From Thermoplasmata archaeon (lineage in GTDB: Archaea; Thermoplasmatota; Thermoplasmata; Methanomassiliicoccales; Methanomethylophilaceae), in NCBI GenBank assembly GCA_015063165.1, contig SUSZ01000002.1:36517-100516 (forward strand): a DNA stretch of 64,000 nt. Reading direction: 5' to 3'. Shown here piece after piece: positions 22,306 through 45,637 of this stretch. Position 1 is the stretch's first letter, and each line of letters starts with the position of its first letter. Under the pieces are notes generated by a model. That model was not told where the DNA came from and did no database searches. It saw only the letters and a program-made list of their open reading frames with translations. Both the position numbers and the translations under genes were made by a program.

Positions 22306-22378
22306 GGGCCCGTGGGGTAGCTTGGTATCCTTCGTGCTTGGGGTGCACGTAACTCCAGTTCAAATCTGGGCGGGCCCA
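22306..22378 (+). tRNA. tRNA-Pro (anticodon GGG)
   Basis: Manual cloverleaf: acceptor GGGCCCG/CGGGCCC. D arm GGGT..TCCT (3 bp, 13:22 unpaired). Anticodon stem CGTGC/GCACG with loop TTGGGGT. T arm TCCAG-TTCAAAT-CTGGG. Discriminator A. CCA is not fully encoded (ACCT). Confidence 0.9.
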
Positions 22379-22558
22379 CCTTTATCCCAAATTCCTGTGC
22401 TTCTCTGAGGATTCCATGTGCTTTCGGCGGGCGAAGCGATCGGTCAAGACGACCAGCATCCTGTTATCGAAGATATGGAAAACGGTCTCCGAGAGTCAAG
22501 TCTCATCAATTCGTTATCGATGAATCATCGACCCTTTGGAAGATAGCGAGGGTTCTGT

Positions 22559-22864
22559 TCACTCAATCTTCAGCAATCCTGAGAAGTTGGTCATGTCCAG
22601 AACGGCCTTGACCTCCTTGTTCACGTTGACCAGCTTGATCCCGTTCTTGTCTTCCATTAGCTCGTCCGCGTTCAGCAGGGACCTAAGCCCGGCCGACGAG
22701 ATGTACGACACGTTCGACATGTCGAATATCAGCGAGGCAGCTGATGCGGCCTCCCTCTCGACGACTTCGTCCAGCTCGGGAGCGGTGACGTAGTCGATGT
22801 TACCTTTGGGCGATATGGTGGTCATGCCGTCTTTCTTCTCTATTCCTATCTCCATGATGTTCAC
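22559..22864 (-). CDS. STAS-domain protein (SpoIIAA/RsbV-like anti-sigma-factor antagonist)
   Basis: 101 aa, GTG start. FDMSNVSYISSAGLRSLL carries the phosphorylatable Ser motif. GTGA overlap with the upstream gene stop. Confidence 0.85.
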   Translation of the reverse strand: MNIMEIGIEKKDGMTTISPKGNIDYVTAPELDEVVEREAASAASLIFDMSNVSYISSAGLRSLLNADELMEDKNGIKLVNVNKEVKAVLDMTNFSGLLKIE

Positions 22865-24672
22865 ATCTCCTTCTCTAACTTCAATATGTTGCGGTCGCCT
22901 TCGCGAACGTAAGAGACGTCGTCACATATCTTCTTCACCAGCATTATACCGAGCCCTCCCTTCCTACGCTCCTTGAAGCTGAGGATCGGATCAGGATCCT
23001 CGCGTTCGAGCGGGTTGAACGGGATTCCCCAGTCGGTGAACGTGATGCGGACAGCTCCGTTGATGACGTCCGTGGTGACCAGGACGTCCCCCTTCTCTTC
23101 CTCGTCCTTATACGCGTACATGTCGATGTTCGCATAGATCTCGGAGCAGGCGGTCTCCATCTCGGTGATGGTCCTGGCAGAGCATCCCGCCTCGCTCATC
23201 CTCTGCTTAATGCGTCCCATGACCTTCTCGTAGCCCTGGTTGTCCGCGCGGACCCTTATCCCTTCGTCCGGCTCTATGTCGTAGGGATGGGTGTACACGA
23301 TGGACATCATGGTCATGTCGTCGCTCTGGTCGGCGCTTCCCACGAAGTCCGACACGTCCGATTTCACCTTGGCGATGGTCTCGGCGGAACCTGCATCGGC
23401 TACGGACGAGAGCGACTTCTCGAGGCGATCCTCCTTGAACATGTCGCCGTCGGTCCTGGCGGCCTCCGTGACGCCGTCCGTGTAGAGGAAGATCCCGTCC
23501 CCGACGTCCAGGTGGAGATGATGCCTGTTGTAGCTCATCCTCTTTTTCCGTCCGAACACGAAATCCGGCTGGGACCTGAGCATCTCGTACTTACCGCCCT
23601 TGCGTATGAAAGGCGGGTTGTGTCCCGCGTTGACGTATGTCACGTCCCCGGTCCTGAGGTTTATGACCCCGATCCAGACCGTGACGAAGTACTTCATCGA
23701 GTTATTGGCGGAGAGCTCCCTGTTGGCCTTCTCCATGGCCTTATCCAGGTCTCCCCCGGCCTGCACGTTGGACCTTATCAGGGCCATGGATGTAGCCATG
23801 AACAGGGAGGCTGGGAGCCCCTTCCCGGAGACGTCGGCTATCACCACAGCGAGATGTTCGTCGCCTACCACGAAGCAGTCATAGAAGTCTCCGCCAACCT
23901 CTTTGGCGGCTGACATCGACGAGGACACGTCGCAGTAGGGCTTGCATGGGAAATCTGTGATGAGCAGGCCCTGCTGTATCCCTCTGGCGTTCGACATCTC
24001 CTTCTCTATACCTGTCCGCTCCCTCATCAGGTCGGACTGCCACTTGGAGTCGGTTATGCCGATCTTCACGGAATAGTAGCATGGGATGCAGACCAGGAGG
24101 TAGATGAGAAGGTCGACGGTGTAGAACGTCTTGATCAGCGAGAACAGCCTGTCCCATCTGGTCATGCCCTGGTACATCCCGATTATTATCGTTTCCAGGC
24201 CGTCATAGATGAGGAGCCCTGCGAGCATCAGCAATGCCCCTATGACGATCGTGCCCATTATGAAGTTGATGCGGTAGTAGAGACAGCTCGAGACCACCGG
24301 CAGAAGCATCAGGATCATCATCGAATAGTCCATCACGGCGATGATGGTGAAAGAGTTGATCAGTATCGATCCGATCAGGAGATATTTCGTCCACCAGTGG
24401 CTTCCTAAGAGAAAACAGATTATCGCGCTGGAAGCCATGAAGGCCATGGTAAGGTAAACGAGGTCTATGTAGTCGGCGACCCCGTAGCGTCCTTCCCCGG
24501 TGAAGATCCATGCAACGTTCATGACCAGGACCGCGACTATTATGATCTCGACGATCCTGTCCGCGCGTCCGTCTCTGTACTGGACTATCTCGTCCAGGAT
24601 TTCGCTGTCGGAAGGTTTCTTGAACATTGAACAGAAGCGCGTTCTCTTCGTTTCATCCGTGGTCTCGGCCAT
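22861..24672 (-). CDS. membrane-anchored PP2C (SpoIIE/RsbU-type) phosphatase fused to an RsbW/SpoIIAB-type HATPase serine kinase
   Basis: Start chosen at MAETTDETKR (24670-24672). The track ORF extends into the PPTase gene. About 6 TM helices are followed by PP2C motifs GGDFYD, VIADVSGKG, LYTDGVTEA, DDMTMM. A C-terminal HATPase_c-like region follows (ETACSEIYANIDMYAY...GGLGIMLVKKICDDV). Confidence 0.85.
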   Translation of the reverse strand: MAETTDETKRTRFCSMFKKPSDSEILDEIVQYRDGRADRIVEIIIVAVLVMNVAWIFTGEGRYGVADYIDLVYLTMAFMASSAIICFLLGSHWWTKYLLIGSILINSFTIIAVMDYSMMILMLLPVVSSCLYYRINFIMGTIVIGALLMLAGLLIYDGLETIIIGMYQGMTRWDRLFSLIKTFYTVDLLIYLLVCIPCYYSVKIGITDSKWQSDLMRERTGIEKEMSNARGIQQGLLITDFPCKPYCDVSSSMSAAKEVGGDFYDCFVVGDEHLAVVIADVSGKGLPASLFMATSMALIRSNVQAGGDLDKAMEKANRELSANNSMKYFVTVWIGVINLRTGDVTYVNAGHNPPFIRKGGKYEMLRSQPDFVFGRKKRMSYNRHHLHLDVGDGIFLYTDGVTEAARTDGDMFKEDRLEKSLSSVADAGSAETIAKVKSDVSDFVGSADQSDDMTMMSIVYTHPYDIEPDEGIRVRADNQGYEKVMGRIKQRMSEAGCSARTITEMETACSEIYANIDMYAYKDEEEKGDVLVTTDVINGAVRITFTDWGIPFNPLEREDPDPILSFKERRKGGLGIMLVKKICDDVSYVREGDRNILKLEKEM

Positions 24673-24733
24673 TCGCTCATCCCTCGGGCGGGTATTTGAT
24701 TCGTATGCTCTTGATTCGATAAAATAGGGCGTA

Positions 24734-25405
24734 TCAGACGAGGTCGGAAAGGTCCACGAATCTGAGAGAAGGTTCGAATTCCGGATTCGTCGAGCATACG
24801 GCGCACCTGTATCCGTCGCCGGGGTCGTACTCCTTGAAATGGTATTCCCTGCCGTCGACGTGCTGCTCCACGCGTATGGGATCGCCGAGGTCGATGCGGA
24901 AGGAGTCAAGCTGGAGGGACATCCCAAGGCCTGTAGCCTTCATGAAGCTCTCCTTCAGGGTCCAGTACCTGCAGAACATCCTCGGCATCTCCTCGGTGCC
25001 CTGAAGGGCCGCTATGGCGTCGTATTCCGAGCCGTGGAAGAACCTCTCGGCCATGTCGAGCCCCGCGTACCTTATCGTCTCGACGTCGCATCCGACCTCG
25101 GAGTCGGAGACGGAGCAGGCCACGCGCTCCTCTGAGTGCGACAGGTTGAAGCGCATCCAGGAGCCTTCCAGGAACGGCTTACCGTTCTTTCCTTCTCCGA
25201 CGGATATCTTATCCGGATCCTCTCCCAGGTCCTCCATGGCTTTGCGAAGGAGGGTCCAGACGCCTATGCAGAGACGTCTGTCCTTCAGGAACAGGAATCT
25301 GTCCGCCTTCTCCCTGCGATACGCCGGCATCTGGCGGTACAGTGCGGAATAGACCGACGGTTCTTCCAAGCTATAGATGTCGGAATAGTATGTCCTGGTC
25401 TTCAT
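24734..25405 (-). CDS. Sfp-type 4'-phosphopantetheinyl transferase
   Basis: 223 aa. GKPFL...FNLSHSEERVACSVS...GCDVE and WTLKESFMKATG motifs. Confidence 0.85.
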   Translation of the reverse strand: MKTRTYYSDIYSLEEPSVYSALYRQMPAYRREKADRFLFLKDRRLCIGVWTLLRKAMEDLGEDPDKISVGEGKNGKPFLEGSWMRFNLSHSEERVACSVSDSEVGCDVETIRYAGLDMAERFFHGSEYDAIAALQGTEEMPRMFCRYWTLKESFMKATGLGMSLQLDSFRIDLGDPIRVEQHVDGREYHFKEYDPGDGYRCAVCSTNPEFEPSLRFVDLSDLV

Positions 25406-25950
25406 GTCCTGCTCCGTTGTCGGAATCTCGGTTCCTAGGCAAGAGGATTAAGGCGAACCACACGAAATAGATTTCAGGACGGGGAATCACTCCATATGAT
25501 CGGACTATTGTATTTTTACTGCAACCTGGTGGTTCTGAGCTATTCCGAGAAGGATACGCGTAAGCTCTTCGCCCGGATCACGGGCCACGACAACTACGGG
25601 GAGCTCGACGTCGTCGACAACGATCCCGAGGACCTGGTGTTGAGTATAGCCTGCATCCACGACGGCGTATGCGGCGGGAAAAAGCCCTGCCGTCCCGTAG
25701 AGCACGTCTTTCCATGGGGGAGGCCGCTTCTCTGTTCGGAGTTCAGGACATGGGCCCGCTGATGTTGGACCGCTTGCTATCGTTCGGGACTCCCGAGGAG
25801 ATACGCAGGCTCCTTTCGGACGGGACCGAGGATCCGGTCCTCTGCCGTGTCGGAGGCAGGGCTGATAAACGAGCCGAAGAAGCAGATCGATAATGATTGC
25901 TCCTTCGGGTAACAGGCAGGGCAGGAGGGATTCCCGCCCCGCCAAGGGTT

Positions 25951-28900
25951 TCATCTGAAGAATCTCAGGGACTTCAGCGTCTTGAACGCCTTGTCGATGT
26001 ATCCGTCGGATATTATCGGCCACGAGAATCCCAGCCTGTACAGCGCCTTCACGGTGTAGGAGTCGTCCGCCGGCACGAACCTGCGGGTCTCTCCGGCGTT
26101 TCCGAGGTAGCTTATCAGACCTGAGACGTACTCCCCGTTGGCCTCGTCCTTCATGGCCTCCATGAACCTGCGGTCGAACTCCTTCCTGGAGACGACCTCG
26201 ACGGGCATTCCGTTGTCCCTCATGACCTTCAGGACGTTCGCCATGTGCACCTTGTGGCAGTTGTTGACGTGGAACACGGTGAACTGCTCCGGGGTTCCGG
26301 CGAGGATCACGACCGCTTTGGCGACCATGTCTATCGGCGAGAACTCCACCTCGGTGTCCATGTCGGTCACGGAGAAGAATCCCAGCTTCACATAGGACTT
26401 CATCTGCTTCATGAAGGCGTTGGTGTTGAAGTTGATCTGGAACTCTCCGTCGCTGTCGCGGCTCATAAGGTTCCCGACGCGGATGATCTTCGCCTTCAGG
26501 CCGTCCGGAATGGCTTTTATCATCTCCTCCTCGGCCATGAACTTGGAGTGGGCGTACTTGTTGTCCAGGTTCTGTCCGAAGTCGAGCTCGTTCTCCTTCA
26601 GCTTCCTGTCCTCGGGGATGCTGCCGTTCACGGATTCTCCAGCCACGCTCTCGGTCGAGATCTGGACCAGCATGGAGCCGGTGCTCTCGGCGACCTTGAT
26701 CAGGTTCTGGACCCCTCCGACGTTGACCCTGTCGATGGAGTCGTCGGCCGCGAAGTGCTTGACCACGGCGGCGCAGTTGATGATCGTGTCGAACTCGCAG
26801 CCGTCCAGCTTCTCCAGGAGGTTCTGGTCGGTGATGTCCCCGTCTATGATGGTGACATCCTTCAGGGCGTCCTCGGAAGCCATCCCGCCGAAGTAGTACA
26901 TGAACATCGTCTTGACTCTCTCCTCGGATGTCTGGCCCTTTCCGCTCCTCACCAGGCAGTACACGTGCTTGGCGTTCCTCCTCAGGAGCTCGAACAGGAC
27001 GTGGGCGCCCAGGTATCCGGTCGCTCCGGTCAGGAGTATCCTGCGGGGGCTGTGGGAGCTTATGGAGTCCAGGCTGCTCTCGACGTTGGCCGCCAGGGGG
27101 CTCTCGTCTATGGTGTCCCTCTTCTCCTCCTTGCTGGCTTCCCCGAGCGTGCCGATGAATCTTGCCAGGGCCTCGGGCGAGGGGTTGTCGAAGACGTTCT
27201 TGTAGACTATCGGGAACCCGGAGTTCATACAGTTGAGGACGAGCTTGGACGCGGAGATGGACGTTCCGCCGATCTCGAAGAAGTTGTCGTCGGCGTTGAC
27301 CTTCTTCAGGCCGAGGACGTTCGCGAATATCTCGCAGAGCTTTGTCTCCACCGGGTCCGAAGGCTCCCTTCCGGCCTTCCTGGGCTCGGAGGACGGCTCG
27401 GGAAGCCTCCTCCTGTCCACCTTGCCGTTGACCGTCATCGGGATGGAATCCAGCTGGATGAAGTGTGCGGGGACCATGTACGGGGGCTTGGTGCTCCTGA
27501 TGAAATCTGCGAGTCCGTTGAAGTCAACGGGGGAGTCCGATACCACGTAGGCTGTGATGGACTTCCCTCCAGCGGGGTCGTCGAAGGCCTTCACGGTGGC
27601 GTCTTTTATGCCCTGGTAGCTGCGGACGGCTCCTTCCACCTCCCCGAGCTCGATCCTGAACCCGCGGACCTTGACCATTCCGTCGCGTCTGCCGATGTAG
27701 TCGATGTTGCCGTCGGGAAGCAGGCGGACCACGTCTCCGGTCCTGTACAGGCGGTCGAAGCCGGGTTCGTCCGAGAACGGATTCCTGGTCACCGTCTTGG
27801 CGGTCTTCTCGGGGTTGTTGAGGTATTCCCTGAACACCTGGGGGCTGCTGATGCACAGCTCTCCGCAGCATCCGACCGGGACGATCCTGTCGCTCTTGTC
27901 CAGGACGTACAGCCTCACGTTGGCGTTCGGCTTTCCGATCGGGAGCAGGGGGCTGTCGTCCTTCACTATGAACGTGGTGACGTTCACGGTGCATTCGGTC
28001 GGTCCGTAGATGTTGTAGAAGTCCACCCATTCGGGCGGGTTCAGCGGCACCAGCCTCTCCCCTCCCGCCATGAACTTCTTAAGGGATCTGCACTTGGTGC
28101 TCTCCATGAACATCCTCCCCATCTGGGTGGTCATGAATCCGTGGGTGATTCCGTTGCTGATGAAGTATCTGTCCACCTCGGCCAGGTCCTTGCGCATGTC
28201 CTCGGGGATTATGTGCACGGTTGCACCGGCGGAGAGCGAAGAGTGGAGGTCCATCATGCACGCGTCGAACCCGTAGCTGGCGTAGGAGGCGTATCTGGAC
28301 GTGCTCGTGAGACCCACCTCGGGGATCATCCAGTTCAGGAAGCTGGCTATGTTCCTGTGCTCCAGGACGCATCCCTTGGGGGTCCCGGTGGTTCCGGATG
28401 TGTACAGGATTATGAAGGCGTCCTCGGGGGAAGGCGCCAGGGATGTCACGTCGGGACGCTTGCCGGTGCAGAGCCCGTCGATCTCGTCCGTGTACAGGAC
28501 GTCTCCCTGATACCCGGAGACGAGTCCGCGGAGGGACCTGTCGGCTATCAGCAGCCTGACTCTGGAGTCCTGCATCATGAACAGCAGGCGCTCTTCCGGG
28601 TATGTCGGGTCCAGAGGCTGGTAGGCCGCTCCGGACTTCACGACTCCCTCGGCGGCCACCACCATGTACACCGACCTGGGAACCAGAACGGCGACGTACT
28701 CGTCCTTGCCGATCCCCTTCGAGTGGATGTAGTCTGCTATGTAGTCCGTCTTCTCGTCCAGCTCTCCGTAGGTCAGGCTGTCGTCGAGATGAACCACGGC
28801 CAGGTTGTCAGGGTGCTCCCTGGCGTTCCTCCTGAACATGTCCACCACGGTGACGGACCTGTCGAACGGGACGTCAGTGTCGTTCATCCTGTCCACTGTC

Positions 28901-31900
28901 GCTATGGTCTTGCTGTCGGTCAGGCTGATCTCGCCGAGCGTCGTGCACGTCGGGAATTCGGATATGGCCTTGTCGAACGACCTGGTGAAGAACTCGATGA
29001 ACTCGGAGGTGAACCTGTCCTTGTCGAACTCCACCATGTACGCGAGCTCGTCGCCGTATTTAGCAACCTGGAACAGTATGGGCTCCTTCTCGCTGGACAG
29101 GCTGACCTGGATCGATTCAGACGGCTTCCCGCAGAACCTGTCGAAGCTGAAGCCGTCGCCCTGGTAGACGAACATCACGTCCGCCTTGACCTCCAGCTCG
29201 CGGCTGACCTCGGCGAAGGAGTAGATGTCGTTGGCCATGCTGTCCAGGATCTGGTCGCTTATCTTCTCGGACAGGCGCAGGGGCGACATGGCGTCGTCGG
29301 AGACGTCGCAGAGGACCGGGAGGGTCTTGACGTACATCGAGACCGAATCCATCGTCCTGGAGTCGCTCCTTCCGTTGTAGATCGTGGTGAATATCGAGTG
29401 CTCGCTGCCGTTGTACTTCGCGAGGACGTAGCCGAAAGCGGCGCACATCAGGCCGTTCATGGTGATCCCGGCTCTCTCGCAGCGCTCGGAAAGCTTCCTC
29501 CCTAGCGAGCCATCGCTCCTCATCAGGAACGTGCTCTCGGCGTTCTGGTCGGGGCGATATCTGTCGCCTTTGGGGAGGGAGTCCCTGTCGTAGCCGGCCA
29601 GGAGTTCGTCGTAGTACTTCTTGGCGCCAGCCAGGGCCTCCGGGGTTCTCTCGTCGGCCTCCTTGAGGGAGGTCTCGAACCCGCTGAACCTCTCGGCCTC
29701 GGGCTTCTCCCCGGCGTATGCCTTGGAGATGTCGTCCGTCAGGACCTTCATGGAGGTTCCGTCGCTGATCATATGGTGCATCTCCAGGAACAGGTACTCC
29801 TTGTCGGCGTGGATGAGCTTGATGCGGAACAGCCTCGATCCCATGAGCCGGAACGGCTTGGCCAGCGTGGGCATCAGGGAGTCGATGGAATCGGCTGTGA
29901 TCTCCTCGATCTCGTCCGCGGAGAACGTCGGGAGGCCCTTCCTGATCAGGCGGATGTCGCCCTTGTCGTTCATGGCCAGCGTGGTCATCATGAACGGGTG
30001 GGCGTTTACCGCCTCGGCGATGGCGGACTTCAGCCTGTCCTTGTCGATGGAGCTGTCGTAGCTGATCAGCAGAGGGATGTTGTACGTGGTGCTGTCCGGC
30101 CTGGCCATGCACTCCACGAAAACGCCTTCCTGGGATTTGGTGAGCGGATAGTCGTCCTGGACCTCGTACGTCTTGGCCGGGACGGAGCTCTCTATCAGCC
30201 TCTCCAGCTTCTCGATGGTGCTGTTGTCCTTGACGTCCTTGGACTTGAACGGGATCCCGAACTCGTCCGAAAGTAGCACGTTGAAGCGGATGCTCCCTAT
30301 AGAAGTGAGCCCGGCCTGGAAAAGGTCCGTCTCTATTCCGAACCTGTCGGTTCTCAGCACCTCGGACGCTATCCTGAATATGCGCTTCTGGATGTCGGTC
30401 TTCGGAGGCGTCGCCTTGCCGAAGTCCATCGTCGGGACTGGGAGCTTTCTCTTGTCGACCTTGCTGTTCACGTTGAGCGGGATGCTGTCCAGCTGCATCG
30501 TCACGGCCGGGACCATGTAAGGAGGCTTGGTCTGGAGGATGAAGCTCTCCAGAGCCTTGATGTCGACCTTTCCATCGGATACGACGTATGCGGCGATCTG
30601 CTTCCCTCCGGCGGGGGCGTCGAACGCCTGGACTGTGGCGTCCTTGATCCCCTTGAACGCGCGGATGGCCCTTTCCACCTCTGTGAGCTCTATCCTGAAT
30701 CCGCGGACCTTGACCATTCCGTCGCGGCGGCCGATGTAGTCGACGTTGCCGTCCGGGAGGAGACGAACGATGTCGCCGGTCTTGTACATCAGGTCATGGT
30801 CTGGACTGTCGGAGTAGGGGTTGTCCACAAGCACCGAAGCGGTCTTGTCGGGGTTGTTCAGGTACCCTCTGAACACCTGCGGCCCGCTTATGCAGAGCTC
30901 TCCGCATGCTCCTGTTGGGACGATCCTGCGGTCCTTGTCCAGCACGTAGACCCTCACGTTGGTGTTCGGCTCCCCTATCGGCAGGAGGGGGCTGTCGTCC
31001 TTCACAAGGAACGATGTGACGCTGACGGTGGTCTCCGTAGGTCCGTACAGGTTGTGGAATTCGAGCCAGTCGGGCGGGGTTATCGGCACCAGGGCCTCTC
31101 CGCCCGTGGAGAAGTGCTTCAGAGATCTGCATTTGGTGCCCTCGATGAACATCCTTCCCATCTGGGTGGTCATGAAGCTGTGCGTCACCTTGTTGTCGAT
31201 AAAGAATTGGTCCATCGCGGCCAGGTCGCTGCGGATCTCGTTGGGTATCACCGCGATGCAGGCTCCGTATGCCAGGGTGACCATCATGTCCATCATGCAG
31301 GCGTCGAAGCCGAAGCTGGCATAGGTGGCGTATCTGGAGCCGGGACCCAGGCCGATCTTCTTGCCGTACCAGTCCGCGAAGGCAGCCATGTTCCTGTTCT
31401 CTATCACGCAGCCTTTTGGCGTCCCGGTGGTTCCAGACGTGTACAGGATGGCGAACGCGTCCTCGGGCGAGGGGGACAGAGGCTTTGCATCCGGAGCGTC
31501 TCCTGCGAACAGACTGTCGAACTCGTCCGTGTACAGGATCTCGCATTCGTGCCCGCTCACCAGCCTCGCCAGCGACCTGTCCGCGATCAGCAGCTTCACG
31601 CCGGAGTCCTGCATCATGAACAGCAGGCGCTCCTCCGGGTACGTCGGGTCCAGAGGCTGGTAGGCCGCTCCGGACTTCACGACTCCCATCGCGGCTATCA
31701 CCATGGTCGCGGACCTGGGGACGAGGACGGAGACGAACTGCTCCTTCCCGATCCCCTTCGATGAGATGTACGATGCGATATGGTCGGTTATCCTGTCCAG
31801 CTCCCCGTAGGAGATCATAGCGTTATCGAACAGGACGGCGTCGGCATCGGGATCATCTTTCGCTCTGGCTCTGAACAAATCGACTATAGTCCTACTCCTG

Positions 31901-34875
31901 TCGTATTCGGAATCGGTCGAGTTAACCTTCTTGACAAGGTCCAGATCATCCTCTCCAGCAACCGTGACATCCCTGAGGGTGGGCGCCTCGAGGAACCCTT
32001 CCGCGCACCTCTCCAAGGTGGACAGGAAGCTCTCCATCATCTCCTTCGAATACACAGATGCGTCATATTCGATGTCCATCAGGAACCCGTCCTTCATCGG
32101 GTATACCTGCACAGTCAGGGGGTTCTTCACGTCCTTTATCTCCATCTGTGAGTCCAGGACGCTCTCGTCCTCCAGTATCCCCTGGTAGGCGAACAGCACG
32201 TCCGATGTGACTCCCATCCTGGAGCTGATCTCCGAGAACGGGAAGATGTCGTTCTGCATCGAAGCTATCAGCTGGTCTCCGGTGCGTCTGACCAGGGCCC
32301 CTGGGCTCTCGTCCAGGTCGAACCTGAATACGACAGGGAGGGTCTTGACCAGCATACCTACGAGGTGGGCGGTCTTCCCGCCCTTCCTTCCGGTGTACAC
32401 GGTGGCATGGCAGGCGTTGTCTGTGCAGTTGAATCTGGACAGCGCGTATCCCATAGCCGATTGGAAGAATGCGTTCTCCGTGGTTCCGGCGGATTCCACG
32501 AACGCCTTGATCTTTTCAGGAGGGACGTCAAGCTTCGACCTCAGGTGGCCTTTGATCCTCTTCTCTCCGTAGACGTCCCTCTGGATGAGCGAGGTACCGT
32601 CCACGTCCGAGAGGAGCTCGTAGTAGTACTTCTCGGCACGACTATAGTCTCCCGAGCTCATGCGTCCTGTCTCCTCCTCGGAGAGGTCGAACATGGTGAA
32701 CGTCTCTGCTACTGGCTCTCCGCCGCCGAGCGCCGTTCCCAGATCGTTCATCAGGACCAGGCTGGAGGAGCCGTCGAACATTATGTGGCTGAAGTCCAGC
32801 AGCAGGGTCTCCGCGTCCCCGGTGTCAAAGACGACTATCCTGTACAGCTCCTTCGACATGTCGAACGGCTTCACGAAGGATTCGCGGTACGCCTCCAGGT
32901 CGGCTTCGGAGCCTTCCATGCGCTCTATCCTGACTTCCGCGTCCGGATGCGGCACCATGCACATCTCTCCCTTGGTGTCGGGTTCGATGGTGCATTTCAG
33001 TCCAGGGTGGGCCTCGATGACCTTTCTCACTATAGTCTCCAAGCTCTTTCCGGAAAGCCGGTCCTTCTCGAACCTGGCCTGCATCGGGAGGTTGTACATC
33101 ACGGTCTCGGGGTCGCTGTAGCACGCCTGGTACACCCCCATCTGCGACCTCGTGAGCAGGTACCTGTCCTTGAGGGCCTTCTTCTCGATCGGAGCCGAGG
33201 TGGCCTTCTCCACGAGCTTGGAGATTATCTCGTCGGATACGGAGGCTATCGAGCATCCGCTAAGCATGCCGGCCACGTCAAGGTCCACTCCGAACCTTCC
33301 CATGACCTCCGATGTGAACTTGATCGCGGTGAGGGAGCTGAGTCCGCAGTACACGAGATTCTCGTCGTAGCGGAAGTCGTCCCTTTCGGTGAGGCTCTTC
33401 AGAATCTCCCTCACGCCTTTGGTGACCGCGTTCTCCTCGAAGTCCGTGGGTCCGGCTGTGACGGCGGAGCCGCTTCCGGGCTCGGTGGGGTCCGGGAGGG
33501 ATTTCCGGTCGATCTTTCCGCTGGGGTTCAGCGGGAGCCTGTCCATGCGGACGAGATAGGCTGGAACCATGTATCCAGGCAGCTTGCTCTTGAGGTAGTC
33601 GCGTACGGCCTCCACGGGGATGTCCGTCGCCGCGGCGTAGTACGCGCACAGGAAGGTCTGGTCGTCGGTGCCCTTGAAGTCCTTGACCGCGGCCTGGACG
33701 ATCCCGGGAAGGGTCATCATCACTCCGGAGATCTCTCCGGGCTCCACGCGCTGGCCGTTTATGTTCACCATCCAGTCGTTGCGCTCCATGTACAGCAGGT
33801 TCCCGTCCTCGAGGCGTCTTCCGATGTCCCCGGTGCGGACCATCGTGTCGTGTCCGTCGCGGTCCTTGAACGGGTTGGGGACGAACGCCTTGGCGGTGGC
33901 TTCGGGAAGGTTGAGGTATCCGTCGGAGAAGTGCCCTGTGAAGCAGATCTCGCCCTCCTCAGCCTCGTTCCCGTTCTCGTCCAGGATGTAGGCGCATACT
34001 CCCTTCAGCGGCTTTCCCAGAGGGGTCTTGTCGTACGCCTTGTCGAGGAAGAATCCGGTGACCATGCTGCAGGTCTCGGACGATCCGTAGCCGTTCACGA
34101 TGGTGAAGTCGTCGGACCATACCTTCACGGCGCGCTCGCCGCCTATGAGGACCAGACGGAGCGTCTTCCTTTTCTGGCGGTAGTATGGGAGCATGGCCGG
34201 CGCTATGAATGTCAATGTGATCTCGTTGTCGGAGTTGAATTCGGAGAGCTTGTTGAGATTTATGCGGATGTCGGCCGGGACGATGTAGTCAGGGCATCCC
34301 AGAGCCAGGAGATTGATGTTGATGGTGGTTCCGACCACGAACGTGAACGCAGCAGGGTTGGCGAATCTGTCGTTCTCTTGGATTTTGAAGAGGTCGTCGA
34401 TCCTGTCCACATAGGAAGATATGGACAGATGCGAATGCACCACCCCTTTGGGCCTGCCGGTGGAGCCGGACGTGTAGATTATGAACGCTATGTTCTTCGG
34501 CGACGGCGTCACGGGGTCGCAGTCCAGCGTCTCGGCCCCGATCCTCTCCAGGTATTCGGGGGTCACGCGGATCTTTGCCTTGCAATCCTCGGCGATGTAC
34601 GCCTTCCTGTCCTCCGGATAGGAGCTGTCGGAAGGGACGAAGAACCCTCCCAGCATCCATGCGCCCAGCATGAATCCCATGTACTCCTTGCATCTGGGGA
34701 GCTCTATCACCACGCCGTCCCCTCTGCAGAATCCGTCCTTCTTCAAGGTCGCCGCCACGCGGTACGAGTAGCTGCGCAGCTCTTCGTACGTGAACGAGCC
34801 CTTGTCGGTCCAGACGGCGGTCTTGTTCGGAGTGGATTCTGCATTGTCCAAAATCATCTCGAGTATGTTCCGCAT
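25951..34875 (-). CDS. nonribosomal peptide synthetase, three modules, A-T-C-A-T-C-A-T-R
   Basis: 2974 aa. Three AMP-binding domains (YTSGSTGRPKG / YTSGTTGTPKG twice; YGPTE; TGD; GK(I/V)D(R/K)). Three carrier domains (CGLSSL, AGLTSI, GGTSIS). Two condensation domains (SHIMFDG, HHMISDG). A C-terminal thioester reductase (TGATGYLG, YAHSK). Confidence 0.97.
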   Translation of the reverse strand: MRNILEMILDNAESTPNKTAVWTDKGSFTYEELRSYSYRVAATLKKDGFCRGDGVVIELPRCKEYMGFMLGAWMLGGFFVPSDSSYPEDRKAYIAEDCKAKIRVTPEYLERIGAETLDCDPVTPSPKNIAFIIYTSGSTGRPKGVVHSHLSISSYVDRIDDLFKIQENDRFANPAAFTFVVGTTININLLALGCPDYIVPADIRINLNKLSEFNSDNEITLTFIAPAMLPYYRQKRKTLRLVLIGGERAVKVWSDDFTIVNGYGSSETCSMVTGFFLDKAYDKTPLGKPLKGVCAYILDENGNEAEEGEICFTGHFSDGYLNLPEATAKAFVPNPFKDRDGHDTMVRTGDIGRRLEDGNLLYMERNDWMVNINGQRVEPGEISGVMMTLPGIVQAAVKDFKGTDDQTFLCAYYAAATDIPVEAVRDYLKSKLPGYMVPAYLVRMDRLPLNPSGKIDRKSLPDPTEPGSGSAVTAGPTDFEENAVTKGVREILKSLTERDDFRYDENLVYCGLSSLTAIKFTSEVMGRFGVDLDVAGMLSGCSIASVSDEIISKLVEKATSAPIEKKALKDRYLLTRSQMGVYQACYSDPETVMYNLPMQARFEKDRLSGKSLETIVRKVIEAHPGLKCTIEPDTKGEMCMVPHPDAEVRIERMEGSEADLEAYRESFVKPFDMSKELYRIVVFDTGDAETLLLDFSHIMFDGSSSLVLMNDLGTALGGGEPVAETFTMFDLSEEETGRMSSGDYSRAEKYYYELLSDVDGTSLIQRDVYGEKRIKGHLRSKLDVPPEKIKAFVESAGTTENAFFQSAMGYALSRFNCTDNACHATVYTGRKGGKTAHLVGMLVKTLPVVFRFDLDESPGALVRRTGDQLIASMQNDIFPFSEISSRMGVTSDVLFAYQGILEDESVLDSQMEIKDVKNPLTVQVYPMKDGFLMDIEYDASVYSKEMMESFLSTLERCAEGFLEAPTLRDVTVAGEDDLDLVKKVNSTDSEYDRSRTIVDLFRARAKDDPDADAVLFDNAMISYGELDRITDHIASYISSKGIGKEQFVSVLVPRSATMVIAAMGVVKSGAAYQPLDPTYPEERLLFMMQDSGVKLLIADRSLARLVSGHECEILYTDEFDSLFAGDAPDAKPLSPSPEDAFAILYTSGTTGTPKGCVIENRNMAAFADWYGKKIGLGPGSRYATYASFGFDACMMDMMVTLAYGACIAVIPNEIRSDLAAMDQFFIDNKVTHSFMTTQMGRMFIEGTKCRSLKHFSTGGEALVPITPPDWLEFHNLYGPTETTVSVTSFLVKDDSPLLPIGEPNTNVRVYVLDKDRRIVPTGACGELCISGPQVFRGYLNNPDKTASVLVDNPYSDSPDHDLMYKTGDIVRLLPDGNVDYIGRRDGMVKVRGFRIELTEVERAIRAFKGIKDATVQAFDAPAGGKQIAAYVVSDGKVDIKALESFILQTKPPYMVPAVTMQLDSIPLNVNSKVDKRKLPVPTMDFGKATPPKTDIQKRIFRIASEVLRTDRFGIETDLFQAGLTSIGSIRFNVLLSDEFGIPFKSKDVKDNSTIEKLERLIESSVPAKTYEVQDDYPLTKSQEGVFVECMARPDSTTYNIPLLISYDSSIDKDRLKSAIAEAVNAHPFMMTTLAMNDKGDIRLIRKGLPTFSADEIEEITADSIDSLMPTLAKPFRLMGSRLFRIKLIHADKEYLFLEMHHMISDGTSMKVLTDDISKAYAGEKPEAERFSGFETSLKEADERTPEALAGAKKYYDELLAGYDRDSLPKGDRYRPDQNAESTFLMRSDGSLGRKLSERCERAGITMNGLMCAAFGYVLAKYNGSEHSIFTTIYNGRSDSRTMDSVSMYVKTLPVLCDVSDDAMSPLRLSEKISDQILDSMANDIYSFAEVSRELEVKADVMFVYQGDGFSFDRFCGKPSESIQVSLSSEKEPILFQVAKYGDELAYMVEFDKDRFTSEFIEFFTRSFDKAISEFPTCTTLGEISLTDSKTIATVDRMNDTDVPFDRSVTVVDMFRRNAREHPDNLAVVHLDDSLTYGELDEKTDYIADYIHSKGIGKDEYVAVLVPRSVYMVVAAEGVVKSGAAYQPLDPTYPEERLLFMMQDSRVRLLIADRSLRGLVSGYQGDVLYTDEIDGLCTGKRPDVTSLAPSPEDAFIILYTSGTTGTPKGCVLEHRNIASFLNWMIPEVGLTSTSRYASYASYGFDACMMDLHSSLSAGATVHIIPEDMRKDLAEVDRYFISNGITHGFMTTQMGRMFMESTKCRSLKKFMAGGERLVPLNPPEWVDFYNIYGPTECTVNVTTFIVKDDSPLLPIGKPNANVRLYVLDKSDRIVPVGCCGELCISSPQVFREYLNNPEKTAKTVTRNPFSDEPGFDRLYRTGDVVRLLPDGNIDYIGRRDGMVKVRGFRIELGEVEGAVRSYQGIKDATVKAFDDPAGGKSITAYVVSDSPVDFNGLADFIRSTKPPYMVPAHFIQLDSIPMTVNGKVDRRRLPEPSSEPRKAGREPSDPVETKLCEIFANVLGLKKVNADDNFFEIGGTSISASKLVLNCMNSGFPIVYKNVFDNPSPEALARFIGTLGEASKEEKRDTIDESPLAANVESSLDSISSHSPRRILLTGATGYLGAHVLFELLRRNAKHVYCLVRSGKGQTSEERVKTMFMYYFGGMASEDALKDVTIIDGDITDQNLLEKLDGCEFDTIINCAAVVKHFAADDSIDRVNVGGVQNLIKVAESTGSMLVQISTESVAGESVNGSIPEDRKLKENELDFGQNLDNKYAHSKFMAEEEMIKAIPDGLKAKIIRVGNLMSRDSDGEFQINFNTNAFMKQMKSYVKLGFFSVTDMDTEVEFSPIDMVAKAVVILAGTPEQFTVFHVNNCHKVHMANVLKVMRDNGMPVEVVSRKEFDRRFMEAMKDEANGEYVSGLISYLGNAGETRRFVPADDSYTVKALYRLGFSWPIISDGYIDKAFKTLKSLRFFR
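25954..27054 (-). other. NRPS terminal thioester reductase (R/TD) domain
   Basis: aa ~2608-2974. Rossmann motif LLTGATGYLG (2614-2623), SDR catalytic YAHSK (2774-2778). No thioesterase domain is present. Confidence 0.85.
27151..27363 (-). other. NRPS carrier domain 3
   Basis: aa ~2505-2575. FFEIGGTSISASKL, predicted Ppant serine aa 2539. Confidence 0.8.
27397..28869 (-). other. NRPS adenylation domain A3
   Basis: aa ~2003-2493. LYTSGTTGTPKGC, YGFDACMMD, YGPTECT, YRTGD, NGKVDRRR. Confidence 0.8.
28564..28648. repeat. intragenic near-identical tract (module 3 copy)
   Basis: 85 nt, 83/85 identical to 31603-31687 (offset 3039 nt, equal to 1013 codons). Encodes GVVKSGAAYQPLDPTYPEERLLFMMQDS in both modules. 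Confidence 0.9.
28891..30168 (-). other. NRPS condensation domain C2
   Basis: aa ~1570-1995. LTKSQEGVF, canonical HHMISDG (aa 1700-1706). Confidence 0.8.
30181..30402 (-). other. NRPS carrier domain 2
   Basis: aa ~1492-1565. LFQAGLTSIGSIRF, predicted Ppant serine S525 of that block (aa 1525). Confidence 0.75.
30430..31908 (-). other. NRPS adenylation domain A2
   Basis: aa ~990-1482. LYTSGTTGTPKGC, FGFDACMMD (Asp1191 present), YGPTETT, YKTGD, NSKVDKRK. Confidence 0.8.
31603..31687. repeat. intragenic near-identical tract (module 2 copy)
   Basis: Partner of 28564-28648. Confidence 0.9.
31921..33183 (-). other. NRPS condensation domain C1
   Basis: aa ~565-985. LTRSQMGVY start, active-site variant SHIMFDG (aa 696-702). 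Confidence 0.75.
33211..33444 (-). other. NRPS carrier (T/PCP) domain 1
   Basis: aa ~478-555. LVYCGLSSLTAIKF, predicted Ppant serine S514. Confidence 0.75.
33490..34875 (-). other. NRPS adenylation domain A1 (loading module; boundaries approximate)
   Basis: aa 1-462. Motifs FIIYTSGSTGRPKGV, NGYGSSETC, VRTGDIG, PSGKIDRK. The residue 37 positions after the A3 lysine is Val180, not Asp. Confidence 0.8.
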
Positions 34876-35316: not shown

Positions 35317-35389
35317 TGGGAATAAATTAACAATATACCAACTTTTATACAAAATTAATTTATACTAATTCGTTTGATATAAATATGTC

Positions 35390-36769
35390 ATGGAAAGGAA
35401 GATAATGCGGGATCTGAAGCTCTGGAAGGAGGGCGGAAGGAGAGAAGCCCTTCTGATCAAAGGCGCAAGGCAGGTGGGGAAGACGTACGTCGTAGACGAG
35501 TTCCTGTATTCTGAATTCCCGGTCTTTTTGAAGATAGATTTCCACGAGCGTCCGGATCTCAAGGGAATATTCGAAGGGGACCTTTCCGCGGATTCGCTGA
35601 TATCCAAGATGGAGCTTATGGTTCCCGGGTTCAGGATGGTGCCTTTCCAGACTGCTATATTCTTGGACGAGATACAGTTCTGTTCCAACGCCAGGGTCTC
35701 CTTGAAATATCTGGCATCGGACGAGCGCATACGCGTGATAGCTTCGGGCTCCCTTCTGGGGTTGAACTATTCCAAGGTCGATTCCTATCCTGTGGGATAT
35801 GAGAGGACCATAGTCCTTCATCCGATGGATTTCGAGGAGTTCCTGTGGGCCGTAGGCATAGAGAAGGAGGCTATCGATTCCATGAGGGCCCGTATATCGG
35901 AGCGGAAGCCGCTGGGAAAAGCATTGGTGGATGCAATGGAGTCCTATTACCGCATCTACGTGGCCGTAGGCGGGATGCCCGAAGCGGTATCCGAGTATCT
36001 GAAGTCAAACGACTACCGTGCAGCCAGGGAGGTCCAGAAGAAGATCGTCGAGGGGTATCGCAACGACATCGGCAAGTACTCCCATGCGAAAGACCGCAAC
36101 CGTATCTTCGCCGTTTTCGATTCGGTCCCGTCGCAGCTGTCGAGGGAGAACAAGAAGTTCATGTACTCGAAGGTCGGCGGAACCAAGCCTGCGACGTACG
36201 ATTCCTATGCTGCGGCCCTGCAATGGCTCACGGATGCGGGCGTCTGTCTGAAGTGCGTTCGTCTTAACGATCCGAATCTTCCGTTAGAGACGGGAGCCGA
36301 TCCGGAGGCCTTCAAGCTGTATATCAACGACACCGGCCTTCTGGCATCCATGATGTCCGAGGATGTGGCGCATGCCATCCTCACGGGAGACGTTCGTACG
36401 AACAAGGGCTCCGTGATCGAGAACGCGGTGGCTTCAGCGTTGGAGTCCAAGGGGCATAGGCTCTATTACTTTTCCAGCAAGAACTTCGAAATAGATTTCA
36501 TCACGGTGATGAGAGGAGCCGTCGCGGCGATCGAGGTGAAGTCCGGAAACAACCGGAGGTCGAAGTCCTTGGACTCCATGAAGGATAAGTATGGGACGAA
36601 ACGCAGGATGAAGTTCGAGATCACTGACATAGCGGTCACGGAGGACGGGGTCGAGCATTATCCCCTGTTCTGCTGCCAGTTCCTGGACAGCCTCTACGAA
36701 CCATACGGCACGGTCTCAGGGATGCCCGACGCGGGAGAGGTCAACGATCTGCTGAGGAAGGCGTCTTGA
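35390..36769 (+). CDS. COG1373-type AAA ATPase with DUF4143-like C-terminal domain (paralog 2)
   Basis: 459 aa. Walker A GARQVGKTY, Walker B FLDEIQ. C-terminal EIDFITVMRGAVAAIEVKSG. Confidence 0.85.
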   Translation: MERKIMRDLKLWKEGGRREALLIKGARQVGKTYVVDEFLYSEFPVFLKIDFHERPDLKGIFEGDLSADSLISKMELMVPGFRMVPFQTAIFLDEIQFCSNARVSLKYLASDERIRVIASGSLLGLNYSKVDSYPVGYERTIVLHPMDFEEFLWAVGIEKEAIDSMRARISERKPLGKALVDAMESYYRIYVAVGGMPEAVSEYLKSNDYRAAREVQKKIVEGYRNDIGKYSHAKDRNRIFAVFDSVPSQLSRENKKFMYSKVGGTKPATYDSYAAALQWLTDAGVCLKCVRLNDPNLPLETGADPEAFKLYINDTGLLASMMSEDVAHAILTGDVRTNKGSVIENAVASALESKGHRLYYFSSKNFEIDFITVMRGAVAAIEVKSGNNRRSKSLDSMKDKYGTKRRMKFEITDIAVTEDGVEHYPLFCCQFLDSLYEPYGTVSGMPDAGEVNDLLRKAS

Positions 36770-36810
36770 GGATGTCCGTCCGGTTCTTTGCGGATGGATG
36801 GCGGATCCGC

Positions 36811-36854
36811 TGACCCTACCAATATCCTACCAATACATTACCAATTTGGTAGGG
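36811..36854. repeat. CCTACCAAT-unit repeat cluster upstream of Fic (left direct repeat plus palindrome)
   Basis: The sequence is TGACCCTACCAATATCCTACCAATACATTACCAATTTGGTAGGG. It has three direct (C/T)TACCAAT units. The last unit forms the palindrome TACCAA-T-TTGGTA (36839-36851). Confidence 0.9.
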
Positions 36855-36883
36855 TATTTCTATCTTGAGAGCGTTGCAATACC

Positions 36884-38189: not shown

Positions 38190-38702
38190 GCCTTGTTGAT
38201 TCGGCCGGGTGTCAACCTATACGAATAGCAGTCCTAGGCCGAAGGGGTTCGGACGGACTATCGTCGTAGAGCATGGTCATCCGAAACAGAGGCGTTCGCA
38301 GGGCTGTGAGAAGGTGAGGAAGATCGGCTCGGGGGCGTTCTCTCCGGCATCGTCTTCATGTCGATCGGCGGAAGCGAGCTCTTTCAGACGTCCAAGAACC
38401 TCTTCGGGAAGGCCTTCGAGGGCTCCGACGGGGTCCTCCGGGAGCTCTGAGAGAAACAGGGCCGTCGGCATCCCGGCGGCTCTCCTTACTCTATCTGGAC
38501 GCTATAAACTATGTGATGCGTTGATTAAAGGATCACGGCAATACTTATTAAATAAAGTCTAAACGATTCAATAGAAAAAAGTGAAAGTTGGATGGAAGTG
38601 ACATGCACTTGATAAATCCTGGATGTGGTCACAACCTTCCACTTTAATGCGGATGGCAGTATAGTGCTGCTCTATCTCAAAGTCGATCATGGAGGATATG
38701 CA

Positions 38703-43691: not shown

Positions 43692-43695
43692 TAAG

Positions 43696-44844: not shown

Positions 44845-45637
44845 GAAGCCGATGATGGAGATACGCGACCTCAGGATATCCTTCGACGATTTCGAGGCCC
44901 TTCATGGGGTGACCTTCGATGTCCCGAAGGGGAAGCTGGTGGGTCTGATCGGTCCGAACGGATGCGGGAAGTCCACGATGATGAAGTGCATCTCGAAGCT
45001 CCACACCCATTGGACCGGAAACATAACGATAGACGGGGAGGACACCTCCAAGATGCGCCCTCCGGACGTCGCCAAGGTCGTGGCCAACGTTCCTGCCGAG
45101 GTGGGATCGATCTACGGCATGTCGGTGATGGACATGGTCATGCTCGGGAGATACCCGTTCGTGAACAAGGTCTGGTGGGAGTCCGAGGAGGACGAGAAGG
45201 TCGTCAGGGAGGCCCTCCAGACGTTCGGCCTTGACCATTACAGGAGGAAGCAGGTGTCTCTGCTGTCCTCGGGAGAGAAGCAGCGTACCCTCATCGCGAA
45301 GGCGTACGTCCAGAATCCCAAGGTCATGCTGGTCGACGAGCCCACGTCCCATCTGGACATGAAGTACAAGCTCGAGGTCATGGAGTATCTCCAGAAGATG
45401 GCCCGCAACGACATGACCGTTATGGTCGCGGAGCACGACATCTCTCTTATGGCCAGATACTGCGACCTGTGCATCATCATGAAGAAGGGAAGCATAGTGA
45501 CCATCGGGGACCCGAAGGAGGTCATCACCGAGGACCTGATCAGAGAGGTCTACGAGGTGGAGTCCTGCGTCGGAGTCGACCGCGAAGGCGAGATCTACGT
45601 CCTCCCCAAGAGATATATCAGGACGGAAGGCGAGTGA
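44834..45637 (+). CDS. ABC importer ATP-binding protein (BtuD/FepC-like)
   Basis: Start MTDEKPMMEIRDL. Walker A GPNGCGKST, signature LSSGEKQR, Walker B MLVDEPTSHLD. 11-nt overlap with the permease. Confidence 0.92.
   Translation: MTDEKPMMEIRDLRISFDDFEALHGVTFDVPKGKLVGLIGPNGCGKSTMMKCISKLHTHWTGNITIDGEDTSKMRPPDVAKVVANVPAEVGSIYGMSVMDMVMLGRYPFVNKVWWESEEDEKVVREALQTFGLDHYRRKQVSLLSSGEKQRTLIAKAYVQNPKVMLVDEPTSHLDMKYKLEVMEYLQKMARNDMTVMVAEHDISLMARYCDLCIIMKKGSIVTIGDPKEVITEDLIREVYEVESCVGVDREGEIYVLPKRYIRTEGE

Follow-up and report, generated by a model that had tools for sequence, protein, structure and literature searches.

Linkage of a predicted partner switch to reductase-terminated non-ribosomal peptide synthetases of the gut and rumen, with a fused membrane-anchored variant in a Methanomethylophilaceae archaeon

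Introduction

Why should the parts of a partner switch lie beside a non-ribosomal peptide synthetase (NRPS) in an archaeon when, to our knowledge, Archaea have no sigma factors? The question is raised by a four-gene minus-strand block in a Methanomethylophilaceae archaeon (Methanomassiliicoccales) encoding an NRPS, a 4'-phosphopantetheinyl transferase (PPTase), a PP2C phosphatase/RsbW-type kinase and a STAS protein. The block lies within the window analyzed here, a stretch of 64,000 nucleotides (nt) of contig SUSZ01000002.1, and all positions are given in window numbering. Comparison with other loci (labelled by L numbers; domain calls by Pfam unless stated) suggests that the block is probably one self-contained, horizontally mobile cassette of a gut and rumen family of reductase-terminated NRPSs, in which a sigma-independent phospho-switch would gate product output after translation.

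Layout of the block

Open reading frame (ORF) calls and Pfam searches on each product confirmed four genuine minus-strand genes, placed as an earlier sequence-only reading of this DNA had placed them (lengths in amino acids, aa):

25951..34875, minus strand: NRPS, 2974 aa, with domain order A1-T1-C1-A2-T2-C2-A3-T3-R (ORF; Pfam on the whole protein and on three slices)
24734..25405, minus strand: Sfp-type PPTase, 223 aa (Pfam ACPS and AASDHPPT_N)
22861..24672, minus strand: membrane-anchored PP2C phosphatase/RsbW-type serine kinase, predicted to be bifunctional, 603 aa (Pfam; AlphaFold2 (AF2) model)
22559..22855, minus strand: single-domain STAS protein, 98 aa (Pfam STAS, E=1e-15; an alternative GTG start at 22864 overlaps the kinase stop)

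The gaps of 545 nt between NRPS and PPTase and of 61 nt between PPTase and phosphatase/kinase were both correct. The overlap described between the kinase and STAS genes holds only with the GTG start at 22864; the ATG start at 22855, which leaves a 5-nt spacer, is more likely because it gives the 98 aa found in all homologs. Independent gene callers chose this ATG on six metagenome contigs carrying an identical locus, and on the same contigs matched the ATG at 24672 that yields the 603-aa phosphatase/kinase. The window contains no second PP2C, STAS or HATPase_c_2 gene.

Linkage seen from the NRPS

The linkage was assessed from the NRPS side on the best 80 loci listed in a metagenome scan anchored on the terminal reductase domain; these came from rumen and human gut and were 43-100% identical to the window reductase (R) domain. 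Switch parts were detected by tblastn (E<=1e-4) and lineages dereplicated at 85% identity. Where the downstream sequence reached 3 kb or more, STAS was present in 43/52 loci and at least one switch part in 48/52. The 32 dereplicated lineages reached through the NRPS carried STAS in 25 cases, STAS together with a kinase domain in 24 and at least one switch part in 28, with a PPTase within the flanks of 15. When 130 ORFs lying downstream of the NRPS in 26 bacterial lineages were searched with Pfam, the recurrent families were HATPase_c_2 (24), MatE (17), STAS (15), SpoIIE (9) and ACPS (7), and no others. In a large human-gut group the order is NRPS-STAS-PPTase, beginning 26-181 nt after the NRPS, with STAS and PPTase as direct neighbours; this group could not be tied to any named characterized cluster, the sole name obtained being Pseudoruminococcus massiliensis.

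The kinase domain is often physically joined to an exporter. MatE proteins with a C-terminally fused, RsbW-like HATPase_c_2 domain retaining the N-box and G1 box were found in 21 lineages, and these fusions are specific to NRPS clusters:

L007:4233-5966, L044:6131-7885, L121:11234-12994 and L147:226-1956: MatE::HATPase_c_2 proteins of 576-611 aa (19 lineages beyond L007 and L044)

No fusion of a switch domain to a PPTase was seen in the clusters compared. Neither sigma-70 nor helix-turn-helix (HTH) families recurred among the 130 ORFs of NRPS contexts or 148 neighbouring ORFs of non-NRPS contexts, and Pfam detected no member of either near the block within the window. The single outgroup examined (n=1), a distant reductase-terminated NRPS cluster on pBMB171 of B. 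thuringiensis, has a PPTase and no switch genes. Plasmid carriage of this NRPS family was considered and rejected, only distant (~32%) Bacillus megaplasmid NRPSs having matched.

At least six arrangements of the gene set were seen, one of them NRPS-MatE::kinase-STAS-PP2C::kinase. The order in L075 and L077 is STAS-NRPS-PP2C-kinase, and that in Ruminococcus sp. JE7B6 (L044, NZ_CP162391), a cultured carrier, is NRPS-MatE::kinase-TIM-STAS-HAMP::PP2C::kinase.

Linkage seen from the switch

The genomic contexts of 10 phosphatase/kinase homologs (32-76% identity) gave the converse view. An NRPS lies directly upstream of the phosphatase/kinase in seven of the ten (L087, L088, L089, L090, L092, L093 and L095), and its stop overlaps the phosphatase/kinase start by 4 nt in L089, L090, L092 and L093. 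STAS follows the phosphatase/kinase wherever the contig continues, the PPTase lies ahead of the phosphatase/kinase, behind STAS or is absent, and the flanking genes are different at every locus. Identity to the window declines in step across loci for all parts, STAS being the most conserved, then NRPS, PPTase and phosphatase/kinase. The treatment of the switch and NRPS/PPTase genes as one unit in the sequence-only reading is upheld, the unit being conserved and mobile and the switch specifically tied to this NRPS family. The adjacency of NRPS and switch is far beyond chance.

Several loci depart from the full set. L089 and L095 have NRPS-phosphatase/kinase-STAS without a PPTase, and in L096 neither NRPS nor PPTase stands beside the switch. 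PPTase and switch are kept with no NRPS within 10 kb in the archaeal loci L091 (7788-12084) and L094 (10001-13692), which could be decayed clusters or clusters whose NRPS is located elsewhere. The order in L091 is PPTase-EamA-x-phosphatase/kinase-STAS, EamA being a transporter; in L094 phosphatase/kinase, STAS and PPTase are followed by a stand-alone 330-aa NAD_binding_4 reductase. Transposases directly flank the switch genes at L095:12244-13503 (DDE_Tnp_1) and L096:884-2089 (IS605 OrfB/TnpB-like), which fits a mobile cassette.

A phosphatase/kinase scan of species-representative genomes listed 80 more distant bacterial relatives, with no Methanomethylophilaceae among the matches listed. In five of the 80 the switch adjoins a reductase-terminated NRPS, and the gene orders of these five, L044, L075 and L077 among them, differ. 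Across 25 non-NRPS contexts of the phosphatase/kinase family the only recurrent neighbours were STAS and STAS::APH, with no MatE and no sigma factor. The L096 variant (2831-6716, G+C content (GC) 0.30) comprises the phosphatase/kinase, an HD_4 protein, a fusion of STAS to an aminoglycoside-phosphotransferase-like kinase (STAS::APH) and a second STAS; similar genes were seen in ~8/25 of the non-NRPS bacterial loci, where STAS::APH is recurrent.

The switch proteins

The phosphatase/kinase comprises three domains:

24058..24606, minus strand: six-helix membrane domain, aa 23 to ~205 (hydropathy; AF2 helices)
23302..23862, minus strand: PP2C/SpoIIE phosphatase domain, aa 271-457 (Pfam SpoIIE, E=1e-42)
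22873..23229, minus strand: HATPase_c_2 (RsbW/SpoIIAB-type) kinase domain, aa 482-600 (Pfam, E=1.5e-17)

Residues expected of both activities are kept. Across 65 homologs the PP2C metal ligands D262, D280, D399, D451 and D452 are invariant, as are kinase residues E511, N515, D547, G549, G572, G573 and G575, and a box census found the N, G1 and G2 boxes intact; P125 and Y132 of the membrane domain are also invariant. In the AF2 model (mean pLDDT, the predicted local distance difference test score, 86) the last membrane helix forms part of a long helix (aa 172-236) that reaches into the PP2C domain, and the kinase domain comes after it. The top PDB match of this model is 3ke6, the fused RsbU and RsbW domains of Rv1364c (E=8.5e-21), with further structural matches to the phosphatase domains of SpoIIE, RsbX and RssB and to 6k4e (SiaA). 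NCBIfam equivalog cut-offs for RsbW, SpoIIAB, SpoIIE and SpoIIAA were all missed by a wide margin. Pfam found no Response_reg (REC) domain in the 603-aa protein, which instead carries the six-transmembrane domain at its N-terminus.

This membrane domain has no Pfam match at E<=1. An exhaustive phmmer search of 1.84e9 representative proteins found it in only 9, each of them a protein of this same type or a fragment. A single-sequence model of the isolated domain reached a pLDDT of 50 and was not used for structure searching. The idea that it represents half of a MatE transporter was discarded (hhalign probability 0.7%, no Pfam match).

The STAS protein scores 68.7 bits against the anti-sigma-factor antagonist model TIGR00377 of NCBIfam, above the cut-off of 53.45. 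Its predicted phosphorylation site, Ser54 (codon 22694-22696), falls in the column of SpoIIAA-Ser58 when aligned to a SpoIIAA reference, and a serine is kept at this site in 34/34 lineages.

Selection, co-divergence and origin

The ratio of nonsynonymous to synonymous substitution rates (dN/dS) was calculated between the window and the orthologous cassettes of L087, L088 and L089. With dS near saturation the values are approximate, though all are well below 1: 0.11-0.24 for the NRPS, 0.14-0.19 for the PPTase, 0.12-0.27 for the phosphatase/kinase and 0.045-0.095 for STAS. Within the phosphatase/kinase the membrane domain gave 0.19-0.22 and the catalytic domains 0.08-0.14. All four genes are under purifying selection in archaea. 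STAS divergence correlates with that of the reductase domain (rho=0.33, reached in 0/2000 permutations), and the nearest neighbour of an NRPS-linked STAS is itself NRPS-linked in 29/34 cases.

Joint acquisition of the block from a bacterium, raised in the sequence-only reading, is plausible: the family occurs mostly in Firmicutes, archaeal copies stand in differing contexts, and horizontal gene transfer was inferred for comparable genes by Leahy et al. (2010; PMC2812497). A recent transfer is not indicated; any transfer was not recent because the GC of the block, 0.58-0.61, is the same as that of its surroundings. The block is probably a signal-controlled secondary-metabolite cassette acquired from bacteria.

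The NRPS and its predicted product

Pfam identified three AMP-binding, two Condensation and three PP-binding domains and a terminal NAD_binding_4 domain in the NRPS:

33514..34848, minus strand: A1 adenylation, aa 10-454, code VVTFLGGSMK (Pfam AMP-binding and AMP-binding_C; code extraction)
33238..33414, minus strand: T1 carrier, aa 488-546, Ser in CGLSSL (Pfam PP-binding; translation)
31972..33168, minus strand: C1 condensation, aa 570-968 (Pfam Condensation)
30421..31875, minus strand: A2 adenylation, aa 1001 to ~1485, code DAMFSGLVSK (Pfam; code extraction)
30193..30384, minus strand: T2 carrier, aa 1498-1561, Ser in AGLTSI (Pfam PP-binding; translation)
28954..30162, minus strand: C2 condensation, aa 1572-1974 (Pfam Condensation)
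27421..28836, minus strand: A3 adenylation, aa 2014-2485, code DAMFMGIVNK (Pfam; code extraction)
27154..27342, minus strand: T3 carrier, aa 2512-2574, Ser in IGGTSI (Pfam PP-binding; translation)
26284..27042, minus strand: terminal thioester reductase (R), aa 2612-2864 (Pfam NAD_binding_4, E=1e-37)

The adenylation (A), carrier (T) and condensation (C) domains stand in module order, every carrier serine is present, and the protein ends in a thioester reductase of the short-chain dehydrogenase/reductase type. The translation of the R domain shows the NAD(P)H motif TGATGYLG and YxxxK as YAHSK, and G43, T45, G46, G49, Y200 and K204 are invariant in a 12-sequence alignment. Adenylation codes were read against a GrsA fragment, for which the register check gave the canonical DAWTIAAICK. 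Asp235 is kept in the A2 and A3 codes and missing from A1, and therefore the starter unit is probably not an alpha-amino acid. As judged from this architecture the NRPS most likely releases a three-unit acyl-dipeptide aldehyde. Orthologs in L087, L088, L089 and L092 are 58-84% identical.

The PPTase and the 545-nt spacer

The PPTase contains a WxxKE(S/A)-type motif, seen in translation as YWTLKESFMKA, together with the two-lobed ACPS fold characteristic of Sfp-type enzymes. It has no named ortholog, since the NCBIfam equivalogs HetI, AcpT and AusB all scored below cut-off, HetI and AusB best. Orthologs in L087 and L088 share 71-76% identity.

The sequence-only reading had stated that nothing else intervenes in the block; the gap upstream of the PPTase shows otherwise:

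25406..25950, no strand assigned: lineage-specific 545-nt spacer between NRPS and PPTase (ORFs, gene predictors)
25496-25762, plus strand: spacer ORF, 88 aa (ORF list; called by gene predictors)
25669-25893, plus strand: spacer ORF, 74 aa (ORF list; called by gene predictors)

Neither spacer ORF matches a Pfam family, and no terminal repeats were found. In a 94.5% identical relative (L097) both read as one frame of ~146 aa, and therefore the spacer of the window holds a frameshifted remnant of a small antisense gene. The 545-nt spacer is confined to the window lineage and L097; in other relatives the gap is 19-74 nt or the PPTase is absent.

Relation to known systems

The sequence-only reading knew of no described case of a partner switch attached to an NRPS/PPTase pair and rated the block the best candidate in the window for an undescribed system. 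The claim that no case had been described does not stand. In Methanobrevibacter ruminantium M1 two serine phosphatases, an anti-sigma-factor antagonist and a MatE pump lie around the NRPS mru0068 (mru0066-0071), and the PPTase mru0514 shares its cluster with a phosphatase, an antagonist and an anti-sigma kinase (mru0512-0516); the proposed role of these genes was environmental sensing and regulation of the NRPS, and horizontal transfer from bacteria was inferred (Leahy et al. 2010; PMC2812497). The association was thus already described, though uncharacterized, and now proves near-universal in its NRPS family. Compared by its 2010 annotation only, M. ruminantium M1 is likewise a rumen archaeon with a reductase-type NRPS and phosphatase, antagonist, kinase and PPTase genes nearby. 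It belongs to a different archaeal order and has separate genes over two loci with a MatE present, whereas the window has one block, no MatE, and phosphatase and kinase fused behind a six-transmembrane domain.

The window R domain is 43-55% identical to those of human-gut and rumen metagenome NRPSs carrying the same accessory genes. Gut dipeptide-aldehyde NRPS clusters were reportedly described by Guo et al. in Cell in 2017, and ruminopeptin is said to have followed from Schneider and Balskus in 2018; the architecture defining the former family is reportedly dimodular, C-A-T-C-A-T-R or A-T-C-A-T-R. The window cluster shares predicted terminal reductase release to a peptide aldehyde and a gut or rumen habitat with this family, and differs from that dimodular arrangement in having an A-T loading module without a starter C domain and three modules. 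Its relatives L093 and L095 do show C-A-T-C-A-T-R. We infer that the window cluster belongs to the gut dipeptide-aldehyde family, and no locus compared was tied to a characterized cluster. As summarized in citing papers, NRPS-reductase clusters of gut commensals make (N-acyl) dipeptide aldehydes/pyrazinones (PMC8210680, PMC12327764).

The closest functional parallel to the switch is found in Vibrio fischeri, where the bifunctional RsbW-type kinase and PP2C protein SypE toggles a conserved serine of the STAS protein SypA within a biosynthetic locus, and SypA acts below transcription on a target that is unknown (PMC10120452). Both systems combine kinase and PP2C in one polypeptide with a separate single-domain STAS, encoded within a biosynthetic locus. 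SypE is soluble, has a central REC domain in the order kinase-REC-PP2C and serves a polysaccharide, whereas the window protein has six transmembrane helices, no REC and the order PP2C-kinase beside a non-ribosomal peptide pathway. Rv1364c of M. tuberculosis (3ke6) fuses RsbU-type PP2C and RsbW-type kinase domains in the same order as the window protein. It carries its PAS sensor and STAS in the same chain and is cytosolic and sigma-factor-linked; in the window STAS is a separate protein and the presumed sensor is the membrane domain. In SiaA/SiaB/SiaC/SiaD of P. aeruginosa a small partner protein, whose state depends on a membrane-anchored PP2C and a kinase, directly controls an enzyme rather than a sigma factor. 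SiaA resembles the window protein in the structural match to 6k4e, with an NCBIfam match below cut-off; the Sia system differs in that its enzyme is a diguanylate cyclase, its phosphatase and kinase are separate proteins and it has no link to secondary metabolism.

With RsbU/RsbV/RsbW and SpoIIE/SpoIIAA/SpoIIAB of Bacillus the window proteins have all three domain families and the phospho-serine position in common, and three parts of a canonical partner switch were found: a PP2C with metal-binding aspartates, a GHKL-type kinase with its boxes and a STAS with its serine. The sequestered sigma factor, or another identified output protein, was not among them; the canonical output of the Rsb and SpoII systems is a sigma factor held by the kinase, and none recurs in these clusters nor is possible in the archaeal host.

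Searches of the available literature returned no paper combining an NRPS with SpoIIE and STAS, nothing relevant on partner switching with NRPSs or on MatE with HATPase_c_2, no description of a MatE::kinase fusion, and no systematic or experimental study of the association between NRPS and switch. What appears to be new within that literature is the near-universality of the accessory switch in this NRPS family, the fusion of its kinase domain to an exporter in most bacterial lineages, the fused six-transmembrane-PP2C-kinase variant in Methanomethylophilaceae and the maintenance of the switch by selection in a host without sigma factors.

Site of action and alternative explanations

A mechanism consistent with these data would begin with the PPTase priming the adjacent NRPS, which would release a peptide aldehyde. 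The six-transmembrane phosphatase/kinase would set the phosphorylation state of STAS Ser54 in response to a cue at or in the membrane; a component of the pathway would then be acted on post-translationally by STAS, or by the kinase domain bound by STAS, as in SypE/SypA, and the outcome would be gating of the output of a reactive product. The output of the switch is most simply a cassette protein, controlled after translation, because Bacteria and Archaea alike retain one set of parts with the NRPS, that set is accompanied by no DNA-binding regulator or sigma factor, and Archaea are without sigma factors. The best-supported site of action would be the export or membrane step, because the kinase is fused to MatE in most bacterial lineages and tethered to a membrane protein in the archaeal version; the PPTase or the NRPS itself would be less supported sites. 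The sequence-only proposal that the module controls NRPS production or carrier priming post-translationally therefore keeps its post-translational part, which is the best reading, while priming as the target ranks below export.

Action on priming, with STAS or the kinase domain controlling the PPTase or carrier domains so that the NRPS stays apo until a signal arrives, is nevertheless the main alternative, because the linkage of PPTase and switch survives without an adjacent NRPS in L091 and L094 and again in M. ruminantium mru0512-0516 (PMC2812497). The direct neighbourhood of STAS and PPTase in the large human-gut group and their 4-nt overlap in L093 point the same way. A PPTase is, however, within the flanks of only 15/32 NRPS-anchored lineages, L089 and L095 keep the rest of the set without one, and no switch domain is fused to a PPTase, against 21 lineages with the kinase fused to MatE. 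On balance we consider this explanation unlikely.

Control of cluster transcription in the classic Rsb/SpoIIA manner, by way of a factor whose gene lies outside the cluster (in Firmicutes a sigma factor, in the archaeon a recruited transcription factor), would be in keeping with domains that are those of RsbU, RsbW and RsbV, with a STAS protein that passes the anti-sigma-factor antagonist model and with the suggestion of Leahy et al. (2010; PMC2812497) that such genes are "regulating NRPS expression". Set against this, neither set of neighbouring ORFs, from NRPS or non-NRPS contexts, contains a recurrent sigma-70 or HTH family. All parts are under purifying selection in archaea, which are without sigma factors, and a host-specific factor is hard to square with a cassette using the same parts in both domains of life. 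Transcriptional control thus seems quite improbable.

Returning to the gating of product output after translation, a number of points weigh against it. The functional case for the switch is built wholly on comparative genomics, from which we infer phosphorylation, its signal, its target and the direction of its effect. The export site of action is extrapolated from bacterial clusters; MatE is missing from the archaeal version, whose membrane domain was not transporter-like in any comparison run. Co-transcription of all four genes in this window is doubtful because the 545-nt spacer with its antisense remnant parts the NRPS from the other three. The reductase-anchored loci are the best 80 listed, mostly from rumen and human gut, and not a random sample, and 4/32 lineages with long flanks have no switch part. 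From the phosphatase/kinase side, 75 of the 80 bacterial relatives listed are not next to an NRPS, so that the phosphatase/kinase-STAS module is generic, and NRPS-linked STAS proteins form no clean clade, the nearest neighbour being non-NRPS in 5/34. These last observations, and the variable, island-like surroundings of the cassette, would suit switch genes that are unrelated passengers, a general envelope or stress module co-mobilized with the NRPS, but this is very improbable given that switch parts are found in 28/32 independent NRPS lineages, with at least six gene orders among them, that NRPS and phosphatase/kinase genes overlap by 4 nt, that the MatE::kinase fusions are specific to NRPS clusters, that the flanks change while the gene set stays, and that STAS and the reductase domain co-diverge.

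Gating of product output by a sigma-independent switch remains the explanation we favour. A broader proposal, offered more tentatively, is that the partner switch may be an integral and near-universal part of one gut and rumen NRPS family in Bacteria and Archaea that controls the assembly line after translation, STAS, toggled by the membrane-bound phosphatase/kinase, docking on the synthetase, the PPTase or a kinase domain tethered to the exporter and so coupling synthesis, priming or export of a reactive peptide aldehyde to a membrane signal.

Boundaries and neighbouring genes

The sequence-only reading ended the block at a tRNA gene. Such a gene is present, on the opposite strand, and the boundary is not conserved elsewhere:

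22306-22380, plus strand: tRNA-Pro(GGG), convergent with the block

The tRNA boundary is incidental because no repeat of the tRNA-Pro 3' end or att-like repeat occurs within the window and 0/15 other cassette loci have an adjacent tRNA; a role as integration site was rejected. Archaeal ribosomal-protein genes lie just downstream of the block.

Upstream of the NRPS a 153-aa ORF (35360-35821) was examined as a possible fifth cassette gene and dismissed because it overlaps a plus-strand AAA_14 gene and shows no homology to the ~155-aa ORFs that precede the NRPS in L093 and L095. Directly upstream of the NRPS, at 35390-38158, an AAA_14/DUF4143 ATPase gene is followed by a Fic/DOC gene (GC 0.52 vs ~0.60); this looks like a small mobile or defence islet, and an AAA_14/DUF4143 gene is also found near the switch module in L096. 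FecCD, Peripla_BP_2 and ABC-type importer genes occupy 40384-45637 and occur likewise within 10 kb of the cassette in L088, L092, L093 and L094. These importers were rejected as cassette cargo despite their presence at five archaeal loci; with a mutual identity of only 31-46%, the FecCD proteins are abundant paralogs and not co-inherited. They may still be linked to the cassette in function, for instance in a metallophore role.

Two stretches, 38625-40370 and 45639-48572, encode large predicted surface proteins that contain Flg_new (Listeria-Bacteroides repeat) and BspA-type LRR_5 domains, and adhesin-like proteins with Flg_new and LRR_5 domains are typical of gut methanogens. Further away, 12896-15229 (L001:19444-21777) encodes an unusual 777-aa fusion of LarA-like (Lar_N and LarA_C), 4Fe-4S ferredoxin and CCG domains, after which comes a Pterin_bind gene, and between 58000 and 61000 GC falls to ~0.47 against a window average near 0.58.

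Implications

In the microbiomes of gut and rumen, few biosynthetic clusters are more widespread than reductase-terminated NRPS clusters of this type, and characterized relatives make protease-inhibiting peptide aldehydes; we know of no account of how producers control or survive making these reactive compounds. The comparisons identify STAS, an RsbW-like kinase domain, often fused to MatE, and PP2C as the standard accessory set of this NRPS family, and turn an old annotation remark into a concrete, testable hypothesis of post-translational control. With three or four genes and no other regulator, the cassette offers a natural minimal system for finding the binding partner of a sigma-independent STAS switch, as is sought for SypA. 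For rumen biology, the block marks a probable regulated secondary-metabolite pathway in methylotrophic methanogens. If the broader proposal is true, the cassette would provide the first known case of a non-ribosomal peptide pathway gated by a phospho-switch, as well as a partner switch that works in an organism without sigma factors.

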